In this document: piece after piece, positions 1,170-63,998 of the stretch | Layout: the number at the start of each line of letters is the position of its first letter | Numbering within the stretch: position 1 is the first letter of the stretch | IMG/VR virus record: IMGVR_UViG_3300025684_000010 | Strand: one strand, 5' to 3' | Length of the DNA: 64,000 nt | Source: a virus | Translations under genes and position numbers: made by a program | The notes under the pieces: generated by a model | The model's database searches: none | The model's input: only the letters and a program-made list of their open reading frames with translations | Told to the model about the DNA's origin: nothing

Positions 1170-2330
1170 ATGTTAGATGAAAGAATCAATAAGATTTACC
1201 AAAAAGAACTATCACGCCAAAAATTAACCGTCGAGTTAATTGCATCAGAAAACTTTGCTTCTAAAGCCGTAATGAAAATGTGCGGTTCAGAGTTTACAAA
1301 CAAATACGCAGAAGGATATCCTGGAGCCCGTTATTATAATGGTTGTGAATTCATGGATGAAGTTGAACAACTTGCTATTGACCAACTAAAAGAAATATAC
1401 GGTTGCGGATTTGCTAATGTTCAGCCACACAGTGGAGCCAATGCAAACCTTGCGATTATGAAAGCCTTTCTAAATCCAGGTGATACTATTCTCGGTATGG
1501 ATTTAGCAAGCGGTGGACATCTAACTCATGGAGCTCCTGTTACTATTTCAGGTAAATGGTTTGATGCTCATACGTTTGGTGTTGGTGACGATGGTTTAAT
1601 TAATTATGATGATGTTGCTTTAATGGCAGAAGCTCATAAACCTAAACTTATTATTGCCGGTGCAAGTGCATACCCAAGACAAATTGATTGGAAACGATTT
1701 AGAGAGATTGCTGATTCAGTAGGCGCAATGCTTATGGTTGACATGGCTCACTATGCTGGTTTGATTGCTGGTCATGCATACGACAGTCCTATTCCTTATG
1801 CCGATGTAGTTACTTCTACAACTCATAAAACATTACGTGGTCCTCGTGGTGGAATTATATTGTGGAACAATCCTGATTATACAAGAAAGATTAATGGAGC
1901 CATATTCCCAGGTACTCAAGGCGGACCTTTAATGAATACGATTGCGGCAAAAGCTCAAGCATTCATTGAAGCCAATACAACAGAGTTTAAAGCATATGCT
2001 CATCAGGTTGTTATTAACGCACAGTCCTTTGCTGAAACATTAAATAAAGCAAAAACATTAGATGTACTAACAGGTGGTACTGATTCTCATATTATTTTAA
2101 TTAGTTTAGTTAATTCTGAATTGAGTGGAAGACAAGCAGCTGATATCTTAGAGAAACATCGTATCACTGTAAACAAGAATGGTATTCCAAACGATCCTCG
2201 AAACTTTAAAGAAACATCTGGTATTCGATTAGGTACTGCAGCTGAAACAACTCGAGGTTGGAAACAACAAGACTTTGTTGAACTAGGTGAAAGAATTATT
2301 AATATATTAGAAGATCCTACCCAATGGTAG
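1170..2330 (+). CDS. glyA: serine hydroxymethyltransferase
   Basis: Motifs SENF, NKYAEGYP, VQPHSG, GGHLTHG, GASAYPR, DMAH, TTHKTLRGPRGG (PLP Lys), FPGTQGGP, GTDSH, VNKN and SGIRLGT. Confidence 0.97.
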   Translation: MLDERINKIYQKELSRQKLTVELIASENFASKAVMKMCGSEFTNKYAEGYPGARYYNGCEFMDEVEQLAIDQLKEIYGCGFANVQPHSGANANLAIMKAFLNPGDTILGMDLASGGHLTHGAPVTISGKWFDAHTFGVGDDGLINYDDVALMAEAHKPKLIIAGASAYPRQIDWKRFREIADSVGAMLMVDMAHYAGLIAGHAYDSPIPYADVVTSTTHKTLRGPRGGIILWNNPDYTRKINGAIFPGTQGGPLMNTIAAKAQAFIEANTTEFKAYAHQVVINAQSFAETLNKAKTLDVLTGGTDSHIILISLVNSELSGRQAADILEKHRITVNKNGIPNDPRNFKETSGIRLGTAAETTRGWKQQDFVELGERIINILEDPTQW

Positions 2331-2926
2331 CTCTTATATTAGGCAACGGAGAATCACGACTAGGTGTTAACTATCGTGAAGAATATCCAGGTGCCTTTGT
2401 GTATGGCTGTAATGGAGCTTATAAAGAAAGTCCTGATGCTTTAATTTGCAGTGACATTTATATGCAGCATATTATTTACAAAACAGGATACTGCAAAGAC
2501 AATCTTTGTTACTTTAGTGAATGGGCTCCAGTACCTTCTGGAGCTGCTGAACATATAATCATGGCTTTAAAAGAAAATGGTTTGCCAGTCATTGAGAATA
2601 GAAAAGATACGACATTCGGCCTAACAAGAACTCAGGCAGTCATATCTGGCTCTGCGAATGCAAATTATGTTACTTGGGTTGACGATAAAGATATGGTCAA
2701 GTCAATTGAACAAATGGAAGTAAGTTCTGGCTCAAGAGCGTTATTAACAGCTTGCGAGTCAGGACAGTATAAAGAAATAGTTCTATTAGGATTTGATGGT
2801 ATGAACGCTTCAAATGTATATCAGAACGATGAAGGATACGAAAGATCTACCCCTCGCAATGAGTGGGTTCAAGAAAGACAAGATATTATGGATAAGTTTC
2901 CAAATATAAAATTCAATGTTGTATAA
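2324..2926 (+). CDS. MptE/DUF115-like (glycosyltransferase-fold-associated) protein
   Basis: ILGNGESR, YGCNGAY, SSGSRAL and LLGFD motifs typical of this phage family. Confidence 0.45.
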   Translation: MVALILGNGESRLGVNYREEYPGAFVYGCNGAYKESPDALICSDIYMQHIIYKTGYCKDNLCYFSEWAPVPSGAAEHIIMALKENGLPVIENRKDTTFGLTRTQAVISGSANANYVTWVDDKDMVKSIEQMEVSSGSRALLTACESGQYKEIVLLGFDGMNASNVYQNDEGYERSTPRNEWVQERQDIMDKFPNIKFNVV

Positions 2927-2998
2927 TAGGTTAGCATCAGCATCTTACGGTGAAGGCCGTAGGTATTTTAAATGGTGGTTAAACGTATGGTGTAATCG

Positions 2999-3052
2999 TT
3001 AAGTATTTGTATAAATATACTTTATGGCTTATTCTAAAAAGTTTTAGACAGA
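2999..3052 (+). repeat. direct repeat copy 1: late promoter plus iscU 5' end (1-nt deletion, reads MAYSKKF-stop)
   Basis: ttaagtatttgtataaatatactttatggcttattctaaaaagttttagacaga matches 3353-3407 except for one fewer A. Confidence 0.95.
3010..3017 (+). promoter_or_regulatory. T4-type late promoter TATAAATA
   Basis: Exact gp55 consensus upstream of 3069. Confidence 0.8.
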
Positions 3053-3068
3053 AAGGATTTTATAAGAT

Positions 3069-3356
3069 ATGAAAAGTTTCAATGAATTCATGACAGAACA
3101 AAAAAAGGTTAAATGGAATAAAGTTCCAGATGGCTATGATGGCAAAAAGAAAGTGTTCAAACATGTTACCTCTGATGGTAAGTTTGAGATTCGTTTGTCA
3201 GGTATGGACTCTATGAAAATGAATAAAGACGGTAGTCAGAAAGTGATGCCGACGGTCTTCGATAAGAGTGGAAACACCCCAAAACACCCTGTAATTGCAT
3301 ATAGTAATGTTGATAAGGCCAAGGCAGAAGTCCAAAGATGGATAGATGATCATTAA
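3069..3356 (+). CDS. putative internal head protein with a capsid-targeting-like N-terminus
   Basis: Starts MKSFNEFMTE, resembling the T4 internal-protein CTS MKTYQEFIAE. Late promoter and SD aagga upstream. Confidence 0.5.
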   Translation: MKSFNEFMTEQKKVKWNKVPDGYDGKKKVFKHVTSDGKFEIRLSGMDSMKMNKDGSQKVMPTVFDKSGNTPKHPVIAYSNVDKAKAEVQRWIDDH

Positions 3357-3407
3357 GTATTTGTATAAATATACTTTATGGCTTATTCTAAAAAAGTTTT
3401 AGACAGA
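3353..3407 (+). repeat. direct repeat copy 2: late promoter plus the intact iscU start
   Basis: Same sequence as 2999-3052 with 6 A, in frame with iscU. Confidence 0.95.
3364..3371 (+). promoter_or_regulatory. T4-type late promoter TATAAATA (6 nt before the iscU ATG)
   Basis: Exact consensus. Confidence 0.8.
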
Positions 3408-3821
3408 TTCGAAGCAGTAACTAATAATCCTGCCGCGCATGGAGTTGGAAGGTTTGATCCTAACGACCCTAATGTTGCTACAGGAATGACAGGTGCACCT
3501 GCTTGTGGAGATGTAATGAAACTCGATCTCAAATTAAATCCTGAGACCGAAGAAATCGTTGATGTTAAATTTAAAACTTATGGTTGCGGTTCAGCAATCG
3601 CAAGTTCATCAATGTTCGTTGAGATGTTGGTTGGTAAAACAATAGAAGAAGCAAAACTAATAAAAGATAGCGAAATCGCAGAAGCTTTAGAATTACCGTC
3701 AATCAAAATACATTGTTCTGTTTTAGCGGAAGATAGTATTAAGAAAGCAATTGAAGATTGGGAAGAGAAAAAAGCAGGTCGTAATGAATCGTGGATTGAG
3801 CGTCATACTAAAAGGACATAA
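3378..3821 (+). CDS. iscU: Fe-S cluster scaffold IscU/NifU-N
   Basis: GAPACGDVM, FKTYGCGSAIASSS and LPSIKIHCSVLAED: all three Cys present, with a variant of the LPPVK motif. Confidence 0.95.
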   Translation: MAYSKKVLDRFEAVTNNPAAHGVGRFDPNDPNVATGMTGAPACGDVMKLDLKLNPETEEIVDVKFKTYGCGSAIASSSMFVEMLVGKTIEEAKLIKDSEIAEALELPSIKIHCSVLAEDSIKKAIEDWEEKKAGRNESWIERHTKRT

Positions 3822-3823
3822 CA

Positions 3824-4324
3824 ATGTACGAGTATAGAACAAATTTAATTAAAGTCGTTGATGGTGATACAGTAGATGTAGACATCGATCTAGGCTTTGG
3901 AATCTGGTTGAGAAATGAAAGAGTCCGTATTATGGGCATCGATACACCAGAATCAAGAACAAGCGATAAAGTAGAAAAACTATTCGGTAAAGCTGCAAGT
4001 CGTCGATTAAAAGAACTCCTTGGTAAATCACCAACATTGAGAACTCAGGTTGCTCGAAACGGCGAAGATATGAAAGGTAAGTTCGGTCGTATCCTTGGAG
4101 ACTTTGATGTATATTGCGCAGTCACTGATGCTTGGAGACCAGTTACTTCGGTAATGTCAGAAGAAGGTCATTGTGTACCTTACTACGGTGGATCCAAAGA
4201 AGATACTCAAGCCCAACACATGGCAAATCGAGTTAAACTTCTAGAGAACGGTTACGTAGATCAAAAGGCATATAATAAAGAAATTGCCAAACAAGAAAAA
4301 GATGCAGCTAAAAATAAATCGTAA
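3824..4324 (+). CDS. thermonuclease (SNase-like)
   Basis: VVDGDT, RVRIMGIDTPE and GKFGRILG motifs. Confidence 0.85.
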   Translation: MYEYRTNLIKVVDGDTVDVDIDLGFGIWLRNERVRIMGIDTPESRTSDKVEKLFGKAASRRLKELLGKSPTLRTQVARNGEDMKGKFGRILGDFDVYCAVTDAWRPVTSVMSEEGHCVPYYGGSKEDTQAQHMANRVKLLENGYVDQKAYNKEIAKQEKDAAKNKS

Positions 4325-4330
4325 AAACTA

Positions 4331-4359
4331 TTGACATCTTTACCAAAACTTGATATAAT
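4331..4359 (+). promoter_or_regulatory. sigma70 early promoter (TTGACA-17-TATAAT)
   Basis: Perfect consensus; the bS21 ATG follows 6 nt later. Confidence 0.85.
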
Positions 4360-4365
4360 ATACAA

Positions 4366-4656
4366 ATGAATTACAATAAAAAGAATGGCGGAAGATCAGT
4401 TGATCTAACCCCACAAAAAAGACATCCTAAAGATAAAAGACCACCATCAGCAATGCCGTTTGATATTGGTCTAAGAAAGTTCAGAAAGAACGTCGAATCT
4501 GCAGGAATTATAAAAGAACTGAGAGCAAGAGAATTTTACGAAAAGCCAACAAGCAAACGTAAAAGGAAAAAAGCTGAAGCTATTAAAAGGCACCAAAAGA
4601 AAATTGCGATGGAGTTTCAAACAACCAACGCAAGAGGCCAAAGAAATTACAGATAA
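4366..4656 (+). CDS. rpsU: 30S ribosomal protein bS21 homologue
   Basis: [38 protein letters not shown] matches the S21 signature (ALRRFK...R.REFYEKP...RKRK). Has an N-terminal basic extension. Confidence 0.88.
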
Positions 4657-4669
4657 ACTTAAAAAACTA

Positions 4670-4698
4670 TTGACATTTGGAAAATAGTTTGTTATAAT
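4670..4698 (+). promoter_or_regulatory. sigma70 promoter (TTGACA-17-TATAAT)
   Basis: Perfect consensus; predicted +1 near 4705-4706. Confidence 0.85.
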
Positions 4699-4704
4699 TA
4701 TATT

Positions 4705-4860
4705 TGAAACGGTGGGATAAACCACGACGGCGAGATGGAATCACGGAGTTAATAGCTCTACCATTTAGGACCCATGACGGAGAACTGCCTTCGGGAGCAA
4801 CACCTGAACTACCGACATACTGAGTAGGAACGGAACGCCAAAGAAGCAACCACTGTTTCA
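4705..4860 (+). ncRNA. putative structured non-coding RNA, family unassigned
   Basis: GC-richer intergenic segment with its own promoter. TGAAACGGTGG (4705-4715) pairs with CCACTGTTTCA (4850-4860). Internal hairpins include a cUUCGg loop. Followed by CCCTTTTT. Confidence 0.6.
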
Positions 4861-4883
4861 CCCTTTTTGACGGAGTTTATATT

Positions 4884-5297
4884 ATGGCATTAGCAAGAGG
4901 TCTATCAACGATTTCCACTCGGAAACGTAAAGTTAAAATCACTAAAGCTAAAATGGCTCAATACGAGCTTAATCGGCGACTGCACAACAAAGCAATGAAA
5001 CGTAGTGGTATGCATGATCTAAGGTACGACACTGTTGATGAATATATAAATTATTGTTTAGGTAAAGTAAAACCTAGCAAAGAGTTTAAACCATTTGTAC
5101 CAACCGATACATTTCGTAGAGAAGTACCAGAATATCCTTCTTGTCATTCTACAGGTGGCGGTGGTCATGGAACTAAAAAGGAATCGCCCAAATACACGGG
5201 TACACTCGTAAAAGGTATTGCTACGATGCATAAATCAAATGCAGTTCCAATTATGAATCAAAAAGAAGCAACAGAAATAAGTGAGATGGCAAGATGA
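4884..5297 (+). CDS. conserved T4-like hypothetical protein (C-terminal YTGTLVKGIATMHKSNAVP)
   Basis: ORF track, SD GGAG; the C-terminal motif is familiar from T4-like phages. Confidence 0.65.
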   Translation: MALARGLSTISTRKRKVKITKAKMAQYELNRRLHNKAMKRSGMHDLRYDTVDEYINYCLGKVKPSKEFKPFVPTDTFRREVPEYPSCHSTGGGGHGTKKESPKYTGTLVKGIATMHKSNAVPIMNQKEATEISEMAR

Positions 5298-5494
5298 TGT
5301 ATGTTGACTATAAATTTGAAATAACTCCACAGGGTTTAGTTATGCTCGATAAACCAGACCCTGATGAGAAGTATATGATTCAACTAAAGAACACTCCATT
5401 TGAAGTTGGAGATAAATTCACGTTGGAAACAACAGAAGACGGTCGTATGTTTTTTAAGAAAGACGGACCAGCACAATTGAACCTGGAAATATAA
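5294..5494 (+). CDS. hypothetical protein
   Basis: ORF track; translationally coupled. Confidence 0.55.
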   Translation: MMYVDYKFEITPQGLVMLDKPDPDEKYMIQLKNTPFEVGDKFTLETTEDGRMFFKKDGPAQLNLEI

Positions 5495-5736
5495 TGGCAA
5501 CAAAGAACGACATAACTGGTGATTCTCTCAGAAGCAAAGCATCTACTAAATCGTATGATGATGGCTGGGATCGAATCTTTGGTAAAAAGGATGACGCTGA
5601 TTTAGGTCTTGAAGGAGATACTCGAATGACTAGTAAAGAACGGCACGAAGCTGAATTTAATACCGTACATCCTGCGGAAACAAGGTATCCTCATTTGAAG
5701 GATAGTAACTTCAAGTACAAAAAGGAGGGTGAGTGA
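5494..5736 (+). CDS. hypothetical protein (MATKNDITGD...YDDGWDRIFG)
   Basis: ORF track; the N-terminal motif is common in T4-like small ORFs. Confidence 0.6.
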   Translation: MATKNDITGDSLRSKASTKSYDDGWDRIFGKKDDADLGLEGDTRMTSKERHEAEFNTVHPAETRYPHLKDSNFKYKKEGE

Positions 5737-5954
5737 TGAAAGAAATCACTGACGAAGAACATGAACTGTTCACCAAGCTGAAAAAGATTTGGTTTCATAC
5801 TCAGCCGGATAAGACAGGCTCATTCTTTATATGTGGTGAAGCTGGTAACAGTGATGAGCATGGATTACCGGAGTTTATTTTAGTATGCCCGCAAATGGGC
5901 ACAAACACCACAGCAGTGTATAAACGAGATCTTGTTGGGAGAAGTGGACAGTGA
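5733..5954 (+). CDS. hypothetical protein
   Basis: ORF track, SD GGAGGG. Confidence 0.55.
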   Translation: MMKEITDEEHELFTKLKKIWFHTQPDKTGSFFICGEAGNSDEHGLPEFILVCPQMGTNTTAVYKRDLVGRSGQ

Positions 5955-6024
5955 AGAAACGATTGGTAGTTTGGTATGCTGTGGTGAAGATCTCACAAAT
6001 AGCTGAAAAAAGTGAAAATAACCA

Positions 6025-6053
6025 TTGACATTCTTTATGATACTGTATATAAT
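6025..6053 (+). promoter_or_regulatory. early promoter repeat element
   Basis: TTGACA-ttctttatgatactgta-TATAAT. Confidence 0.85.
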
Positions 6054-6083
6054 GGTTGTATAAATTGAATAAAGGAATATATT

Positions 6084-6317
6084 ATGAGTACTGAATTGAG
6101 AAATGTTCCAAACACTGATTTGTCCCAAACACGATTTTACGGCGGTTCAAAGCGTGGAACGTGTGTACAGGTTACTAGCAGTGATGGCAAGCAATTCCTT
6201 CAATTAACTCGTGAACAGGCTGATCAGCTTTCTCGAGAATTAGCGTTGTTTGCTAATGCAGAAGAAGTTGTTTATGAAGCTGATGGTGAAGCTATCTGCG
6301 AGGCACTTTGTTCATGA
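6084..6317 (+). CDS. hypothetical protein
   Basis: ORF directly behind the promoter, with SD AAGGA. Confidence 0.65.
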   Translation: MSTELRNVPNTDLSQTRFYGGSKRGTCVQVTSSDGKQFLQLTREQADQLSRELALFANAEEVVYEADGEAICEALCS

Positions 6318-7591
6318 ATATGGAACCATGGAAAATAATACAGTTACTTGAGAGAGATAACAGTCGACTATATAAAGAAGATATGTTGTCTCAATATATT
6401 GATGATGAAGGTCTAGTCAAAGGTTTATTATATTGTCTTAATAATATGATTACCTTTGGTGTGGCTGATGTACCAACAAGTCAAAACGACGGTCCTGGTC
6501 TATTACCTGAGGATTTCTATATTCTCGCAGATCAATTAAAGAATCGTGAATTAACAGGCCATGCTGCTCGAGACGCAATCGTAGTCGCAAGAGAAGCAGC
6601 AACATCAGAACAATGGAATGATTGGTACCGTAGAATCTTAATTAAAGACCTTAGATGCGGTGTATCTCTCAAGACAGTTAATAACGTTAAGAAAGGAACC
6701 ATCCCTGTATTCACTTGTATGCTTGCCCACAGTGGTGACAACAATCCTAAAAAGATTACAGGAGACTGCGTTGTAGAATATAAGTATGATGGTGTAAGAG
6801 CAATCATAATCGTTCAAAACGGTAATGCAGTCATCTATTCTAGAAATGGTAAACTACTTACCAACTTCCCACATATCGAAAAAGCGTTTAGTAAAAAGAT
6901 CTTTGATGACTTAGTCTTTGATGGTGAAGTTATGTCGAAAGATTTCCAATCATTAATGAAACAAGTTCATCGTAAAGAAGGAGCTCAGACTGAAGATGCA
7001 TACTTTGCATTGTTTGACTTTTTACCTATTGACGAATTCCAAACAGGTAGTGGTACATTACCTCTAATCAACAGAAAAGAATTATTAAAAGGATTTCAAA
7101 GTTCTGAGTACTTTGATGATTGTGTTGTTGTTACGAAATACGATGTTCTTAATATCGAAGATGATGCTGATAAGTTCAAAGGAATTAATAATACAGCAAT
7201 AGAAGAAGGTTATGAAGGTATCATGGTCAAACCTATCAACGGTCTTTATGAATGTAAACGATCTTACGGTTGGCTAAAAATGAAACCTTACATTGAAGTT
7301 ACATTAAAGGTTATTGACATTGAAGAAGGAACAGGTAAAAATGAAGGAAGCACAGGAGCACTTGTATGCGAAGGCACCGACGAAGGTAAACATATCAAAG
7401 TTAATGTTGGGACAGGTCTTAGCGATGCTAACCGGGATGATATTTGGAATAGTGTTGACACTGTCATTGGTCAGTTAGTTGAAATAAGAGCTGATGCAAT
7501 TACTATCAGTCAAGACTCAGATGAACTGTACAGTTTAAGATTCCCACGATTTAAATGTTTTAGAGGTTTTGAACCAGGAGAGAAACTATGA
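6308..7591 (+). CDS. ATP-dependent DNA ligase
   Basis: Motifs KYDGVR (adenylated Lys), FDGEV, EGYEGIMVK, WLKMK, VGTG and LRFPRF. Confidence 0.95.
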   Translation: MFMNMEPWKIIQLLERDNSRLYKEDMLSQYIDDEGLVKGLLYCLNNMITFGVADVPTSQNDGPGLLPEDFYILADQLKNRELTGHAARDAIVVAREAATSEQWNDWYRRILIKDLRCGVSLKTVNNVKKGTIPVFTCMLAHSGDNNPKKITGDCVVEYKYDGVRAIIIVQNGNAVIYSRNGKLLTNFPHIEKAFSKKIFDDLVFDGEVMSKDFQSLMKQVHRKEGAQTEDAYFALFDFLPIDEFQTGSGTLPLINRKELLKGFQSSEYFDDCVVVTKYDVLNIEDDADKFKGINNTAIEEGYEGIMVKPINGLYECKRSYGWLKMKPYIEVTLKVIDIEEGTGKNEGSTGALVCEGTDEGKHIKVNVGTGLSDANRDDIWNSVDTVIGQLVEIRADAITISQDSDELYSLRFPRFKCFRGFEPGEKL

Positions 7592-57707: not shown

Positions 57708-60700
57708 TTATGAAAGTTTTTCAACCAACTTTGAAACCATGTCTTTCAAGTCATTAATTTCTTGTTGCTGATTATTTATAATGGTTCGTTGTTCTTTGAT
57801 TGCCTTTGCTAACTCTACTGCCGAAGCCAATGCCGCTCCACCATAGTTAACTGATAAAGTTCCCATTTCGTCTTGTGCAGTTATAATTGCTTCTGGTAAA
57901 AGCACTTGGAGGGATTGAGCTGATACACCAACCTGCGTGAGTTGTTCCCCATCAGTACGATCGTAAATACCTACACGAACTTCTGATAAACGAGAAACAA
58001 AGTTATCAGGCATTGGTTTCCAGTTTGTTTTTAATCGCTCATCCGAATAAGCAGTAACGTTACCACTTGCTTTTATTGAATAAGACATGGAAGAACCATA
58101 CTGGCCATTAATCAACACTAACAAACCGTGGCTATCTAGGTTTCCTGCAGCTCCACCGGCATTTGGATGCGACCAGGCCATTCCATAAAGATTACCAGTT
58201 GTAGTACCATTAGCAGGTAATCTATAAGAGGTACCCATTGAGAATACATTCTGATATCTTGTTGATGTATATACACCAACGAGTCCATAGCCATAGTTAC
58301 CATCAACAATAATATCACCGTAGAATCTAGCAGATGTCCCTGCAGTTGCATCAACATAATAATTTGTATTATCAGAATCGTAGAATACATTAGCGCGAAG
58401 ATCACCACTTCCGCCGCCGCCATACATAGCGAATTCTTTCCAACCAGATGTAGATGTACTCCACTTACCTCTTGCCCAATACCTATTGGCGGTTGCGTTC
58501 GTAGCACCTACCATCATCCAACCGTATGATCGACTACCGTCACTTAGTGCATAGTGTTGTCCAGATACAATACCTTGTGCGTGAATATATCCACCACCTT
58601 GTGGATGGTCAGTACCGCCTCCCCAAATATCCCAACCAGAGAAACCACCTTTCCAAGCGTTGGCCCAGGTACCAGCACCAGTTCCCCAACCAAAAGTACC
58701 TGTGTGATAGTTAGTATCACTAGTGTAGTCAGATCGAGGAGTAATCCAATGGTGAGCATTACCCATTCTAACGTGAGCAGCATTAGTCCATTTATTTGTA
58801 TTTGAAGTACCGTCCGGATCTATATAAAAACCAGTGTTATTTGTATCGTAGAAGATTGGCGCTCTGTGAGAACCACCAGCAGTCACAACTCCCGTAAAAT
58901 ACGCGCCTTCAGATGCGAACGAGATTCTATGGTATGTACTACCATTATTTTTTAGTGCAAGGTGATGGCCGTAACCACTTCCATATGAATATGCCAATCC
59001 GTACATATTACCAATTGGCCATGATTCACCAATTGTCCAAATGACCTTTTCAGCAGTACCGGTAGCATTGTAACTACCCATCATTCCGCCGTTGCCTCTA
59101 GAAACAACGTAATCAGAGAACCACATTCTTCCGGCGAAGTTGCCTTGGTTAAAGTTAGAATATGAATGAGGATCAGCATAGTAACCAGTGTTATTAGCAT
59201 CGTAATAAATGCCAGCGTACATTGCACCTTCGTTACCGTTATTAACATTGAGTACTGGTATTGTATTCCAACCGCTCCAACCTGCCCATGCGTTACGGAA
59301 ACGAAGGTTCGGAATTGGACCACCAACCATCTGCCAACCAAGGTTATACGTAGGAGAGGCATTGTAGTGGTACGCTTGCATTCCAACCCAGTGAGATGTA
59401 CCCGATGGTTGGTTGGCTGGGTTGCCCCAAGAATCAATGAAACCCGATCCCCAAGTACCAACAGTGTTCATATCAATCGTGCCCCAACCCATTGAACCGG
59501 TCCAATAGTTGGTATCGCCTGTGATGCGAGGTCTTGCTGAATAGTATTCAGCGGAATTATATGTCTTACCAGCAAGACCCATCATCGCCTTAGTTCTATT
59601 ACTTACACCTTCAAATCGTGTTGAGTTAACTGATGCGCCATCGAAGTAGTAAGCAGTATTATCTCTGTCATATAGGATATTGGCCTGAATAGAACTAGCA
59701 TACAAGGTACGATATACTTCAGCGTTTCCATTGCCCGGCTCCATTCTAAAGCCCCAGTTACCTGAACTGTTTAATAGACCGAAACCTGAACCATCGTAAT
59801 AGAGGTAACCACGACGACCTGTACCCGATCCCTGCGATGGTTGATGTCGATCGTATATAATCAAACCACCAGAACCAGCTGCACCGTCTAAGTGCCAATA
59901 GGAAGAACCTGGACTGTAGAAGTGACGGCCTGTTGCTTGGTTATATAAACCAGTTCCTGAATTATAGTTACGGAACCAACCATCGGTATAAGCTTCGGAC
60001 ATTCTTGTTGTATTAAATCTTGAATCACCAGAGCCTGAACCAAAGTAGAAAGCAGTATTTTCTCTATCGTAAAAAATGTTAGCTCTTACATCATTCATAT
60101 ACGAAGTAGAAGCAAAGTCACCATAATAATTAGTATCGTTTCTATCGTAATAAATGTCAGCTTGCAGCGCGCCGTTAAGATAAGTTGTTCCACCTACATA
60201 CCATTGTAAGTATAGGCTATTACCTGAACGAGAATCTAAGTGTAAGTTACCGTTTGTAGTCGCAACTGAAGCTTCGTTATTATATCGACCATTTGTACCA
60301 ACAGCAAGGTATCTGCCCCAACTTGGATTAGGTCCGTGTAATGCGCCACCTCTAATTCTTAAAGCAGCATCAGAAGTTGAATTAGGATCTAGATAATAAG
60401 TAGTATCATTATTGTCGTAGAATATTGGAGCACGAGCTGAAGCAGTGTGGAATGAGTTACCACTGTTATCCATTCGTAACGACCAACTACCACCGCTATT
60501 TAAGAAACCAATATTGTTACTGTTATCAGCATATGCATAACCGCGAGGGGTGTCGCCTGCAGTTGTAAATAGAATCTGTGAAGTACTACTTGTTGAATAC
60601 AATCTGAATCTTGAAGAGTTATCAGAGTACCAATGCATTGCAGTACCTTGGTTATATAGACCAGTGCCGGGCGAATCGTTACGGAACCAGCCACGAGCAT

Positions 60701-63700
60701 AGAATTCATTTGTTCTTAGATCTTGAGCCAGATTTGAAGAACCGTTAGGATCTAGATAATAACCTGTGTTATTATAATCGTAGAATTGTGTACCACGAAC
60801 ATCATTTGAGAATACCGCTCTACTTGATATAGCAGCTCTGAATGTTCCGTTATTAATAATCAACAAACCGTGATCGTTTAGATTGTTTGCACCACCAAGA
60901 CCGCCTGCATTTGGATGTGACCAATATAAACCGTAAGCATTCTGCGTTGCAGTACCTGCGGCATTAATCGAATACTGATCATCCATATTAAAGATTGTTT
61001 GTAATCTTGTAGATGCGTAAGTACCTGTCATACCTAATCCATAATTCATGAATCTTACGGTTCCATTAATCTGAACCGTATTCATGTTGGATGTAGAGGC
61101 AAAGTCTCCGAAGTAACCAGTATCATTCTGATCGTAGAATATTGGAGCACGAACACTAACAGTGTTAAAGAAATCTGTTGTAGATGTTGCTACCTGTCTC
61201 CAACCTGGGCTGTAACCAGCACTTTGGTTGTTGTAAATATAAACTGAACCGCCGCCATTACCAGTTGTAGGTCTAATGACTAAAGATGTATAATAAGAAC
61301 CATCATGCCAAGTAGCAATCGCAGTACCAGCCATCTCAATATTCTGAATACCTGTATTTACATCAGAGTTACCAGCGTATGACCATGGAACCTTCTGAGC
61401 TGTAAAGCCTACTGCTAACGCTTCGTTATCTCCTAGGTCCTGAATAAAGTTATCGGTTGAAGTACCGTTATTAAAGTATCCTGTACTCCATCTGAACCTA
61501 CCAAAGTTATCAGGATAGAAACCATTTAACCTGTCGTTAATTGTTAAGTTTCTTAATACTGAATTTCCATTAGGATCTACACGATAAGTTGTATCGTTAT
61601 AGTCATAGAAGATTGGAGCTCTAAGGTCGTAGAACGCGTAGAAGATGCGGTCAGTATCTAATCTTGCTGCCTCGACTTGACCAGGCGCAAACATTCTTGT
61701 TCTACGACCAGAATAATAGTTGAGGTATATATCATTGCCGCCTTGAGCATCAATGTGTAAGTTACCACCAAGATAAATTCTACCAGCACCATTTACGGAT
61801 TCAATTGTTACACCATTTTCAACTCTAATGTTATTAGTTCTAACATCACGGAATCTTGCATCACCTTGGCTTGAACCAAAGTAGTAAGCAGTATTTTCGC
61901 GGTCGTAGAATATATTTGCTTGTACAGAATTCATATACGAAGTAGAAGCAAAGTCACCATAATAATTAGTATCGTTTCTATCGTAGTATCTATCTGAGTA
62001 CATATTACCGATGTTGTATGTTTGGCCACCAACATAGTTATTCAAGTATATACTATAACCAGATTTTGCGTCGAGATGCAAGTTACCGTTTGTAACAGCA
62101 ACTGATGCAGTTCCAGTTCCTACCCAACCGTTTGTGCCAACGTATAAGTATTCACCCCAAGTTGTATTAGGTCCGTGGAATGTACCACCACGTTGTCTTA
62201 TTGAACTATTACTTGTGCTGTTAGGATCTACATAATAACCAGTATCATTTGAATCGTAGAAGATCGGTGCTCTTAATGAATCGCCTGCTTGTAAGTTGTA
62301 GTTTACATATACGTTATTTCCACCTAATGGATCTGAACCATTATTGATTGACATGACCTGAGTTGCCATGGTATAATCATTATAGAAACGCATACCGTTA
62401 TAGCTAGCATTTGCACCAAACTTAATACCTGTATGGAAAGCAATTCTTAAATCAGGATATGGATAAGACCAAGCACCGCCTTCTTTATAGATAGCGTATG
62501 CCGTACTTCTACCTGACGCAAAGTATAAACCAAACGTAGAAGCATCTGAAACATCAGCTGTATGAGAGAAGTAGTTAGCTTGCTGAATATTATGTCTAGA
62601 TGTACTTGCCTGATCTGTATAGTAAGATGTATCATTTGAATCATAAAATATTGGAGCTCTTAACGAAGCACCCGCACTTAGAATCTGATTAGCATACACG
62701 TTGCCATCTGGTTGCCATTGCATTGTGCTATAACGAGTACCACTTGTATTCGTATTATAGAAATAGATATGACCGTCAGTCGAGAATCGCATGTATCCTT
62801 GACCACGAGTAGTATTTGGTCGACCAAAGTAATATACGTTAGTACCACTATTGAGATTATTATCAACGTTATAACCGAATCCGCCCCAGTCCCAAGTATT
62901 ACCCGGTTCTGAAACCCACATCTGTAATGCAAGTTCACCAGTACCTGCACCGTTATTACCAGCAGGAAGTGCCAATCTTATTGCCGTATTACCGTGATCA
63001 CCAGTTACATCTAATCTCTTACCACCTGCACGATAACCAATACCTAATTGTAGCATACGACCGTTAGAGTTTGGATCCAAGTAGTAAGCAGTATCATTTC
63101 TGTCATACATTAACGTAGGACGAATATCACCTACGAATTCAGATCTGCCTGCATATGTTCTTTGTTGCCAATCATTAACTCGACGAGTTTCTAATCTATC
63201 AGAGTATCCTAAGATTGAAGTAGCAGGTGCACCTGCAGTTCCTGTAGCACTAAATGCGATTACTGATACACCGTTTGATGCATTAAATAGACGAATGTTT
63301 TCGTTGTAAGAGTTAACATTGTCGCCATCGTTAATCCAAACAGACGGATTTTGAATCTCGCCACGAACAAGTAATGATGTACCTGTTGAAGCAGGATCTA
63401 CATAATAAGCAGTGTTGCCACGGTCTCTAAATATATTTGCATCAATAACATCGGCAGTAATATCATCAACTGTTAAGTCACCAGTAATAAACGCATTACC
63501 ATCAACATTCAGTTGATCCTGTACTCTTAAATCATCAACTAATAAATTAGATTCAGCATTACGTCTCTTCAACATAATACCGCCGTACTCTCTTAAAGCA
63601 CCGCCACTGTTATAGTTAAGTAATATTCTAATTCTTACATAATGACAACCTAAACCATCTGATCCATTATAAGGTGTATGAGATGTTGGAATTGTTGTAT

Positions 63701-63998
63701 GATTTCTTAATGTTTCCCAAGCAGTACTTGTTCTGTTTGAACCACCAACAACAAAATATGTTGTACCTGTATTACCTGCGATTGGATTCTTATCTTTATC
63801 GAATCTCTCAACACCGTAGTATAATAAACCGCCTGAACCTGAAATAAGCCGAGTTGAAATTTCACCGTAAATATCTTCGCCAGGAGTAACAGGAATATAG
63901 TTTGAATAGAAGTTTCTATACGCAGCTGTTCGTAATACCATTCCACCTGCGAAAGGACCATCTCCTGATTTAACATATTCACTAGTTGTTCCTGTAAG
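57708..63998 (-). CDS. long tail fibre (5'-truncated by the window) with a C-terminal peptidase S74 intramolecular chaperone
   Basis: Frame stays open past 63941 to the window edge. About 16 FYDxNDTxYYxD repeats. C-terminal YSDERLK...GVSAQ...LPEAI...VNYG followed by a coiled coil. Confidence 0.85.
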   Translation of the reverse strand, partial: LTGTTSEYVKSGDGPFAGGMVLRTAAYRNFYSNYIPVTPGEDIYGEISTRLISGSGGLLYYGVERFDKDKNPIAGNTGTTYFVVGGSNRTSTAWETLRNHTTIPTSHTPYNGSDGLGCHYVRIRILLNYNSGGALREYGGIMLKRRNAESNLLVDDLRVQDQLNVDGNAFITGDLTVDDITADVIDANIFRDRGNTAYYVDPASTGTSLLVRGEIQNPSVWINDGDNVNSYNENIRLFNASNGVSVIAFSATGTAGAPATSILGYSDRLETRRVNDWQQRTYAGRSEFVGDIRPTLMYDRNDTAYYLDPNSNGRMLQLGIGYRAGGKRLDVTGDHGNTAIRLALPAGNNGAGTGELALQMWVSEPGNTWDWGGFGYNVDNNLNSGTNVYYFGRPNTTRGQGYMRFSTDGHIYFYNTNTSGTRYSTMQWQPDGNVYANQILSAGASLRAPIFYDSNDTSYYTDQASTSRHNIQQANYFSHTADVSDASTFGLYFASGRSTAYAIYKEGGAWSYPYPDLRIAFHTGIKFGANASYNGMRFYNDYTMATQVMSINNGSDPLGGNNVYVNYNLQAGDSLRAPIFYDSNDTGYYVDPNSTSNSSIRQRGGTFHGPNTTWGEYLYVGTNGWVGTGTASVAVTNGNLHLDAKSGYSIYLNNYVGGQTYNIGNMYSDRYYDRNDTNYYGDFASTSYMNSVQANIFYDRENTAYYFGSSQGDARFRDVRTNNIRVENGVTIESVNGAGRIYLGGNLHIDAQGGNDIYLNYYSGRRTRMFAPGQVEAARLDTDRIFYAFYDLRAPIFYDYNDTTYRVDPNGNSVLRNLTINDRLNGFYPDNFGRFRWSTGYFNNGTSTDNFIQDLGDNEALAVGFTAQKVPWSYAGNSDVNTGIQNIEMAGTAIATWHDGSYYTSLVIRPTTGNGGGSVYIYNNQSAGYSPGWRQVATSTTDFFNTVSVRAPIFYDQNDTGYFGDFASTSNMNTVQINGTVRFMNYGLGMTGTYASTRLQTIFNMDDQYSINAAGTATQNAYGLYWSHPNAGGLGGANNLNDHGLLIINNGTFRAAISSRAVFSNDVRGTQFYDYNNTGYYLDPNGSSNLAQDLRTNEFYARGWFRNDSPGTGLYNQGTAMHWYSDNSSRFRLYSTSSTSQILFTTAGDTPRGYAYADNSNNIGFLNSGGSWSLRMDNSGNSFHTASARAPIFYDNNDTTYYLDPNSTSDAALRIRGGALHGPNPSWGRYLAVGTNGRYNNEASVATTNGNLHLDSRSGNSLYLQWYVGGTTYLNGALQADIYYDRNDTNYYGDFASTSYMNDVRANIFYDRENTAFYFGSGSGDSRFNTTRMSEAYTDGWFRNYNSGTGLYNQATGRHFYSPGSSYWHLDGAAGSGGLIIYDRHQPSQGSGTGRRGYLYYDGSGFGLLNSSGNWGFRMEPGNGNAEVYRTLYASSIQANILYDRDNTAYYFDGASVNSTRFEGVSNRTKAMMGLAGKTYNSAEYYSARPRITGDTNYWTGSMGWGTIDMNTVGTWGSGFIDSWGNPANQPSGTSHWVGMQAYHYNASPTYNLGWQMVGGPIPNLRFRNAWAGWSGWNTIPVLNVNNGNEGAMYAGIYYDANNTGYYADPHSYSNFNQGNFAGRMWFSDYVVSRGNGGMMGSYNATGTAEKVIWTIGESWPIGNMYGLAYSYGSGYGHHLALKNNGSTYHRISFASEGAYFTGVVTAGGSHRAPIFYDTNNTGFYIDPDGTSNTNKWTNAAHVRMGNAHHWITPRSDYTSDTNYHTGTFGWGTGAGTWANAWKGGFSGWDIWGGGTDHPQGGGYIHAQGIVSGQHYALSDGSRSYGWMMVGATNATANRYWARGKWSTSTSGWKEFAMYGGGGSGDLRANVFYDSDNTNYYVDATAGTSARFYGDIIVDGNYGYGLVGVYTSTRYQNVFSMGTSYRLPANGTTTGNLYGMAWSHPNAGGAAGNLDSHGLLVLINGQYGSSMSYSIKASGNVTAYSDERLKTNWKPMPDNFVSRLSEVRVGIYDRTDGEQLTQVGVSAQSLQVLLPEAIITAQDEMGTLSVNYGGAALASAVELAKAIKEQRTIINNQQQEINDLKDMVSKLVEKLS
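60093..60149. repeat. 57-nt perfect direct repeat in the tail fibre, copy 1
   Basis: Identical to 61929-61985 (encodes YDRNDTNYYGDFASTSYMN). Confidence 0.9.
61929..61985. repeat. 57-nt perfect direct repeat in the tail fibre, copy 2
   Basis: Identical to 60093-60149. Confidence 0.9.

Follow-up and report, generated by a model that had tools for sequence, protein, structure and literature searches.

A predicted two-domain RNA beside the bS21 gene of uncultured marine T4-like phages

The gene for ribosomal protein bS21 is the commonest virus-encoded ribosomal protein gene in phages. Phage T4 also encodes small, stable, structured RNAs among its early genes, namely RNA species 1 and 2 (rnaC and rnaD), and in phage HK022 the put element is an antiterminator RNA located just past the early promoters. 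A survey of pelagimyophages found S21 in no specific gene cluster, seemingly needing no other viral factor (PMC7029224). Furthermore, bS21 is able to bind RNA outside the ribosome, as seen with OLE RNA, which is structured and non-coding (PMC12054373). In contrast to the situation described in the survey, we found that, in the phage lineage analyzed here, bS21 usually travels with a predicted, elaborately folded RNA, which is better conserved than the surrounding proteins.

The locus, its promoters and its relatives

The 64-kb stretch of DNA analyzed in the present study (hereafter the window) comes from an uncultured T4-like myophage, of whose genome it is a fragment. Compared with the sheaths of cultured phages, Sinorhizobium phiM12 and Pelagibacter HTVC008M among them, its tail sheath protein is at most 44% identical. 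An open reading frame of 2077 aa on the minus strand (57708-63941) reaches the window edge. The genes around the RNA are all on the plus strand, in the following order: a NifU/IscU-like iron-sulfur scaffold gene (3378-3821; PF01592, E = 4e-41) just 5' of the SNase-bS21 block, an SNase-like gene (from 3824), the bS21 gene (4366-4656; Pfam PF01165, E = 1e-16), a gap of 227 nt that holds the RNA, a gene for a 137-aa protein (phrog_27048; 4884-5297, hereafter gene X), which is the neighbor 3' of the RNA and has no promoter of its own in the window, and an ATP-dependent DNA ligase gene (from 6308).

Directly 5' of the bS21 gene is a perfect promoter (4331-4359, plus strand). The ATG of bS21 is located 6 nt past the perfect -10 box and is not preceded by a ribosome-binding site, and a spacing of 6 to 9 nt was observed here and in 14 relatives; the bS21 mRNA is thus apparently leaderless. 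In the gap that follows, the initial annotation had placed a perfect promoter with a start of transcription at 4705-4706, and we arrived at the same assignment: a sigma-70-type early promoter (4670-4698, plus strand; TTGACA-17-TATAAT, with both hexamers perfect and a TG extension), from which a +1 near 4705, the first base of the closing helix P1 of the RNA, is predicted. Seven promoters in the window have in common the longer word AACTATTGACA, a spacer of 17 to 19 nt and TATAAT (plus strand, at 4326, 4665, 12451, 17602, 18354, 21291 and 32521), where none is expected by chance. For six of them, a start codon is found 6 to 40 nt downstream; the RNA promoter alone has about 180 nt before the next one. 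An eighth perfect promoter, at 6025, has CCATTGACA in place of AACTATTGACA.

To gather relatives, viral and metagenome contigs were probed with gene X, with bS21 and with two DNA patterns, and a covariance model (R1), from which the short helix P5 was left out, was built from 38 distinct sequences. R1 matches the window at full length at 4705-4862 on the plus strand (175.2 bits, E = 3e-46); this is its sole match in the 64 kb, and related contigs likewise have one copy each. The family has at least 45 distinct variants, all on contigs of uncultured marine T4-like phages. A pattern scan of metagenomes gave about 20 true members among the matches listed, most of the others being chance matches. 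The nucleotide identity of the RNA is 77 to 90% even where the identity of the gene X protein is only 49 to 65%.

The RNA had been described as unassigned, and the searches of catalogues agree with this. At gathering cut-offs, none of the 4227 models of Rfam 15 matched the whole window or 10 related loci, and at E <=10, positions 4600-4950 gave three weak matches, the best of which was S774 (23.8 bits against a cut-off of 48). ARAGORN called no tRNA or tmRNA gene in the window. A blastn search with positions 4300-5300 found no copy in 50,697 phage records, and a tblastn search with bS21 gave distant prophage or host copies only. A pattern scan of 185,579 prokaryote genomes gave 19 matches, all in high-G+C bacteria, none of which fit R1. 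Our literature searches found no description of the RNA. The RNA family is therefore absent from the catalogues searched, and was found here only in uncultured marine T4-like myophages.

The position of the promoter was tabulated for 43 representative loci. In 32 of them, a perfect promoter ends 5 to 14 nt 5' of the RNA (5 to 8 nt, with 14 nt in the L092 type), so that transcription would begin at P1. In eight others, the perfect promoter is located 3' of the RNA and 5' of gene X, and the RNA follows the bS21 stop codon by 4 to 12 nt. Two variants have a promoter on neither side, and the remaining locus, L023, is outside these classes. In 10 variants, the RNA is thus without its own promoter, at the 3' end of the bS21 transcript.

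At the other end of the RNA, the U run noted in the initial annotation is present at 4864-4868 (plus strand), 3 nt past P1 and after three C residues. Runs of T5 to T7 past P1 were observed in most of the promoter-first variants, and the run is weak or absent in several variants. The tract would be a poor intrinsic terminator, because it lies 3 nt beyond a helix that encloses 134 nt and behind the three C residues, and a terminator scan of the plus strand from 3000 to 7000 called none, the U tract included. It is possible that the tract functions as a weak terminator or attenuator, or as a U-rich element before the ribosome-binding site of the next gene.

Comparative evidence for the fold

Taken alone, the sequence of the window does not have a significant fold (z = -1.13 against shuffled copies; +0.14 for the minus strand), and hence the case for an RNA rests on the relatives. 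In a model-fitted alignment of 43 distinct sequences, 94.3% of the cells are paired and 23 pairs are changed on both sides; the covariation score was 0.392, versus 0.151 for shuffled alignments and at most 0.063 when the partners were slid. Similar values were obtained with a plain MAFFT alignment that was not fitted to the structure (90.9% of the cells paired, 21 pairs changed on both sides, a score of 0.330 versus 0.149 shuffled and at most 0.074 slid). The covariation of homologues, which had been named as a check, is thus found with either alignment. Among the relatives, hairpins are exchanged or inserted and the core is undisturbed. The G+C content of the stretch is 0.49 versus 0.29 to 0.38 in the flanks, in agreement with an earlier remark that it exceeds that of the surroundings. 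From these comparisons, and from those of the open reading frames given below, we conclude that positions 4705-4862 encode a conserved, non-coding, structured RNA with two domains.

In the supported model, all elements of which are on the plus strand, the ends are joined by P1, the 11-bp helix with one G-U pair that the initial annotation had proposed (4705-4715 with 4850-4860); seven of its 10 modeled pairs are changed on both sides. P1 is followed by a purine-rich conserved joiner, J1/2 (4716-4721), which reads GAUAAA here and GAAUAAA in most relatives. Domain 1 (4722-4780) is an irregular hairpin composed of P2, P3 and P3b. P2 (4722-4730 with 4772-4780) has two G-C pairs at each end and a symmetric 5x5 non-canonical loop between them; its outer pair, C-G here, is G-C in L025 and L143 and U-A in L003 and L004, and the neighboring A.C pair becomes G.U in L367 with no change of shape. 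Above P2 is a variable hairpin, P3 (4733-4738 with 4761-4766), with the inner stem P3b (4746-4749 with 4755-4758). These correspond to the AGAUGG/CCAUUU stem and the GAGU/GCUC stem recognized from the single sequence, and in relatives P3 is exchanged for hairpins of 3 to 5 bp with GCAA, GAAA or GUAA loops, that is, for substitutes with a GNRA cap.

Domain 2 (4786-4848) is an irregular rod composed of Pa, Pb, P5 and P6. Four pairs of Pa (4786-4787 with 4847-4848, and 4789-4792 with 4843-4846) are changed on both sides. Pb (4797-4798 with 4837-4838) covaries, and P5 (4803-4804 with 4832-4833, CC with GG) is paired in 54% of the cells, one clade having U-rich mismatches. P6 (4809-4812 with 4824-4827) is the CUAC/GUAG stem seen earlier, and all four of its pairs are changed on both sides. 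It is capped by a conserved loop of 11 nt (4813-4823), at which relatives tolerate the insertion of a hairpin of 20 to 35 nt. The internal loops of both rods are near-invariant across the family. On inspection of the model for kink-turns, the loops were symmetric (4x4 by Pa, and GAA opposite GAA by P6), and the canonical 3-nt bulge could not be placed.

Two of the stems proposed from the single sequence did not withstand the comparison. A cUUCGg hairpin is paired in only 30% of the cells across relatives; its CUUC (4789-4792) pairs instead with GAAG (4843-4846) in Pa, with strong compensatory change. A GGCG/CGCC stem has no compensation and is broken in 10 of 38 sequences, and the same G and C residues covary instead as Pb. 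A local hairpin (GUGG, a loop of 6 nt, CCAC; 4712-4725, -6.3 kcal/mol) had been proposed to compete with the terminal helix, and would compete with both P1 and P2. It can form here and in about 92% of the cells (92.5% paired), but none of its pairs is changed on both sides, and L143 has lost the pairing. When all column pairs were scanned for pseudoknots, G-U noise swamped the result, and only the nested helices and the P2 pairs emerged. The energy of the supported model is -29.5 kcal/mol (-33.0 kcal/mol as an enforced constraint) versus -38.2 kcal/mol for the unconstrained minimum, a difference to be expected where a fold has many non-canonical loops.

The window contains two small open reading frames over the RNA, one of 39 aa on the plus strand (4704-4823) and one of 64 aa on the minus strand (4667-4861), and stop codons are often lacking from the minus strand, as might be the case if the element were a small protein gene. 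However, the longest open frame changes its frame and strand between relatives, and the lengths of the element (134, 137-140, 142, 156-158 and 161 nt) differ by numbers that are not multiples of three. Moreover, the substitutions in the helices are compensatory and the neighboring genes are all on the plus strand. Conservation of the overlapping 64-aa frame had been named as the result that would speak against a non-coding element, and neither frame is conserved. It is thus extremely improbable that the element encodes a protein.

Linkage to bS21 and variant forms

In the gene X loci that have the RNA and enough upstream DNA, bS21 is always located just 5' of the RNA, and the spacing is 4 to 67 nt across RNA-bearing loci. 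Both the RNA and bS21 are absent from 27 gene X loci, and in nine of these the SNase gene is followed directly by a promoter and gene X. In L210, the order is reversed, with the RNA preceding bS21. Two groups of relatives (seven loci: L085, L089, L115 and L131, and L092, L117 and L367) have the promoter and the RNA before other genes, with no bS21 in the record. The gene downstream of the RNA thus varies by lineage: it is gene X or, in three further contexts that have both the promoter and the RNA, bS21, the gene for a 447-aa ParB-like protein or the gene for a 69-aa membrane protein. The RNA is lacking at other bS21 genes of phages, such as those with a RecA/UvsX-like gene next to them on the 3' side. 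Searches of whole records found no bS21 in five RNA-bearing records and no RNA in five other bS21-bearing records, all of which are fragments, so that these absences are weak evidence; one of the RNA-bearing records without bS21, a contig of 108 kb, is rated as about 50% complete. The link between the RNA and bS21 is therefore usual and not universal, and most of it could be inherited gene order.

The two domains occur in several arrangements. In L210, domain 2 precedes domain 1 as a separate hairpin, and both hairpins are closed by the same 12-bp helix, of which each has its own copy. In L085, L089, L115 and L131, they are likewise separate hairpins, with domain 1 first. In L316 to L323 and in L356, a 96-nt mini form has only P1 and domain 2 (in L316, at 1780-1935, between bS21 and gene X). 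The existence of nested, tandem 2-1, tandem 1-2 and domain-2-only forms suggests that the two domains are independent folding units and that domain 2 is the common core.

Several of these loci have further features. The permuted RNA of L210 (1060-1300) is located between a perfect promoter and a terminator-like hairpin, 5' of bS21. In one of the lineages in which the RNA has no bS21 neighbor, L089 encodes 3' of the RNA (1929-3272) the 447-aa protein, which has a DGGHR motif and looks ParB/DndB-like. In L092 (204-413, minus strand), L117 and L367, which have no bS21 neighbor, the RNA precedes the gene for the 69-aa protein, a conserved predicted membrane protein starting with MKWLAT. In L026 (1-192), there is a decayed copy of the RNA, of which the 3' half of the P3 hairpin and the 3' end of P1 with the U tract are left; it is followed by an apparent tRNA gene with the anticodon TGT, as identified by eye.

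Possible functions and comparison with known systems

The best explanation of these observations, to which we give a probability of about 0.45, is that the element is a gene for a non-coding two-domain RNA, whose product is a protein-binding, discrete RNA of the early phase, with bS21 as the first candidate for the protein. The early sigma-70-type promoter would start the RNA at the first base of P1, early synthesis would give a stable RNA of about 155 to 165 nt, either discrete or processed, with its end at or near the U tract past P1, and read-through would supply the 137-aa gene. Since the fold is kept while its position relative to promoters and genes shifts, and since invariant bases are located in the internal loops, the RNA may be a folded protein-binding module and not an RNA for antisense pairing or a regulator of one particular gene. 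The stand-alone small RNA proposed in the initial annotation is retained to this extent: the element is structured and non-coding, has its own promoter in 32 of 43 variants and occurs in unrelated gene contexts, and that it yields a discrete RNA is what we infer from these features. We would guess that the likeliest partner is the translation apparatus, and the adjacent phage bS21 is the first candidate because of the gene linkage and the precedent of bS21 binding OLE RNA (PMC12054373). A more specific version by analogy, which we regard as rather unlikely, is that the RNA is a dedicated partner of phage bS21, either in an extraribosomal particle or by joint loading on the platform of the host 30S subunit, and reprograms early translation initiation; the two modular rods would then be the protein-binding surfaces.

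A different possibility, which we consider doubtful, is that the RNA acts as a cis-acting leader on its own transcript, either as an attenuator controlled by a ligand or protein and composed of P1 and the U tract, or as a put-like element that alters RNA polymerase so that transcription continues into the early genes further downstream. In 32 of 43 variants, most of which have the T5 to T7 run past P1, the RNA indeed follows a perfect early promoter and precedes the next gene, and thus has the position of a 5' leader; gene X has no promoter of its own in the window, and the local hairpin at 4712-4725 competes with P1 and P2. Aptamers typically have near-invariant bases in their junctions and loops, as this RNA does; together with covarying helices, such bases are a riboswitch-like trait, which is generic to structured RNAs and no proof of ligand binding. 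However, a perfect promoter splits the RNA from gene X in eight variants and two more variants are promoter-less, with the RNA after bS21, and the downstream gene, of which there are four, differs between lineages, which is ill-suited to control by one metabolite and is not the position expected of a riboswitch. The competing hairpin has no covariation and is lost in L143, the U tract has a poor terminator geometry, and no riboswitch family matched. The suggestion of a switchable leader for the gene at 4884 is accordingly weakened, and sequestration of the ribosome-binding site of gene X finds a CUCC in only 16 of 43 variants. Alternatively, the RNA could be a cis element of the leaderless bS21 mRNA, that is, a 3' operator or stabilizer (5' in L210) for self-control by free bS21; a leaderless bS21 mRNA has no 5' leader to hold an operator, which would then be located elsewhere. 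No terminator intervenes, so that bS21 transcripts would traverse the RNA in every bS21-linked variant, the RNA begins 4 to 12 nt past the bS21 stop codon in the promoter-less variants, the leaderless start is kept in the window and the 14 relatives, and bS21 and the RNA are co-present or co-absent in gene X loci. Nevertheless, we think this improbable, as a strong promoter lies between bS21 and the RNA in most variants, the RNA occurs without bS21 in the two groups of seven loci, and other phage bS21 genes have no such RNA. To our knowledge, there is no 3' operator known for a ribosomal protein gene.

It is very unlikely that the RNA is a titration decoy, that is, a GGA-rich RNA that soaks up CsrA/RsmA-type regulators, the anti-Shine-Dalgarno (anti-SD) tail of 16S rRNA or, like 6S RNA, RNA polymerase. 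Such a function would be compatible with the strong early promoter and with the GGA words, which number about 5.8 per copy and several of which lie in conserved loops; but these words are distributed over the helices, junctions and internal loops of a single compact structure and not over repeated hairpin loops, and none of the 43 variants contains GGAGG or CCUCC. No 6S or CsrB-type match was found at E <=10, and the supported fold, in which a three-way junction carries two short irregular rods, is not the long rod of 6S RNA with its central bubble resembling an open promoter. The earlier idea of an RNA polymerase or ribosome decoy thus found no specific support, there being neither a 6S match nor an anti-SD word in the 43 variants. 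Whatever the partner of the RNA, it appears to be a compact new RNA fold with strong covariation and a natural permutation of domains, and would be a good target for structural and binding studies.

Compared with known systems, the RNA resembles T4 RNA species 1 and 2 in being small, structured and encoded by T4-type phages, although the likeness is by description only; the T4 species are encoded within the tRNA cluster and excised from a tRNA precursor, whereas the RNA described here has its own promoter and no tRNA neighbors and is located beside bS21. With terminating riboswitches and HK022 put it shares a structured element that lies immediately past a promoter and has a closing helix with a U tract beyond it. 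However, put is composed of two simple stem-loops of about 70 nt, and, unlike riboswitches and put, the phage RNA has no constant downstream gene, an intervening promoter in eight variants and no covariation of a switch. Small RNAs derived from 3' UTRs with an internal promoter are similar in that their own promoter is located just past a coding region and the upstream mRNA also traverses the RNA; those RNAs pair through an open seed with the aid of Hfq, whereas the phage RNA is predicted to be compact and multi-helical with no evident seed. The CsrB/RsmZ sponges differ in having repeated hairpins with an apical GGA, whereas the phage RNA has its GGA words dispersed in one fold, in stems as well as in junctions and internal loops.

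The autoregulatory leaders of ribosomal protein genes (such as S15, L20 and S4) are also folded RNAs beside a ribosomal protein gene, with invariant internal loops of a type recognized by proteins. In contrast, these leaders are 5' of the regulated cistron and mimic rRNA, and the phage RNA is mostly 3' of bS21, often with its own promoter and sometimes without bS21; none of the rRNA or ribosomal protein leader families of Rfam matched. OLE RNA is similar as a conserved, structured, non-coding RNA tied to bS21 (PMC12054373), but it is about 600 nt and found in Bacillota, whereas the phage RNA is about 155 nt and has no match to the OLE family of Rfam. Furthermore, OLE RNA binds bS21 at a duplex that mimics the pairing of SD and anti-SD (CCUCCU with AGUAGG) (PMC12054373), and CCUCC is absent from 43 of 43 phage variants; AGUAGG is present in the RNA of the window, but the stem that contains it covaries to other sequences. 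If bS21 and the RNA do cooperate, the way in which phages retune host ribosomes could be approached through a concrete, testable system. Should the RNA prove to be a dedicated partner of bS21, the two would be to phages what the OLE-bS21 complex is to bacteria, and a ribosomal protein encoded by a virus would for the first time be known to have an RNA cofactor.
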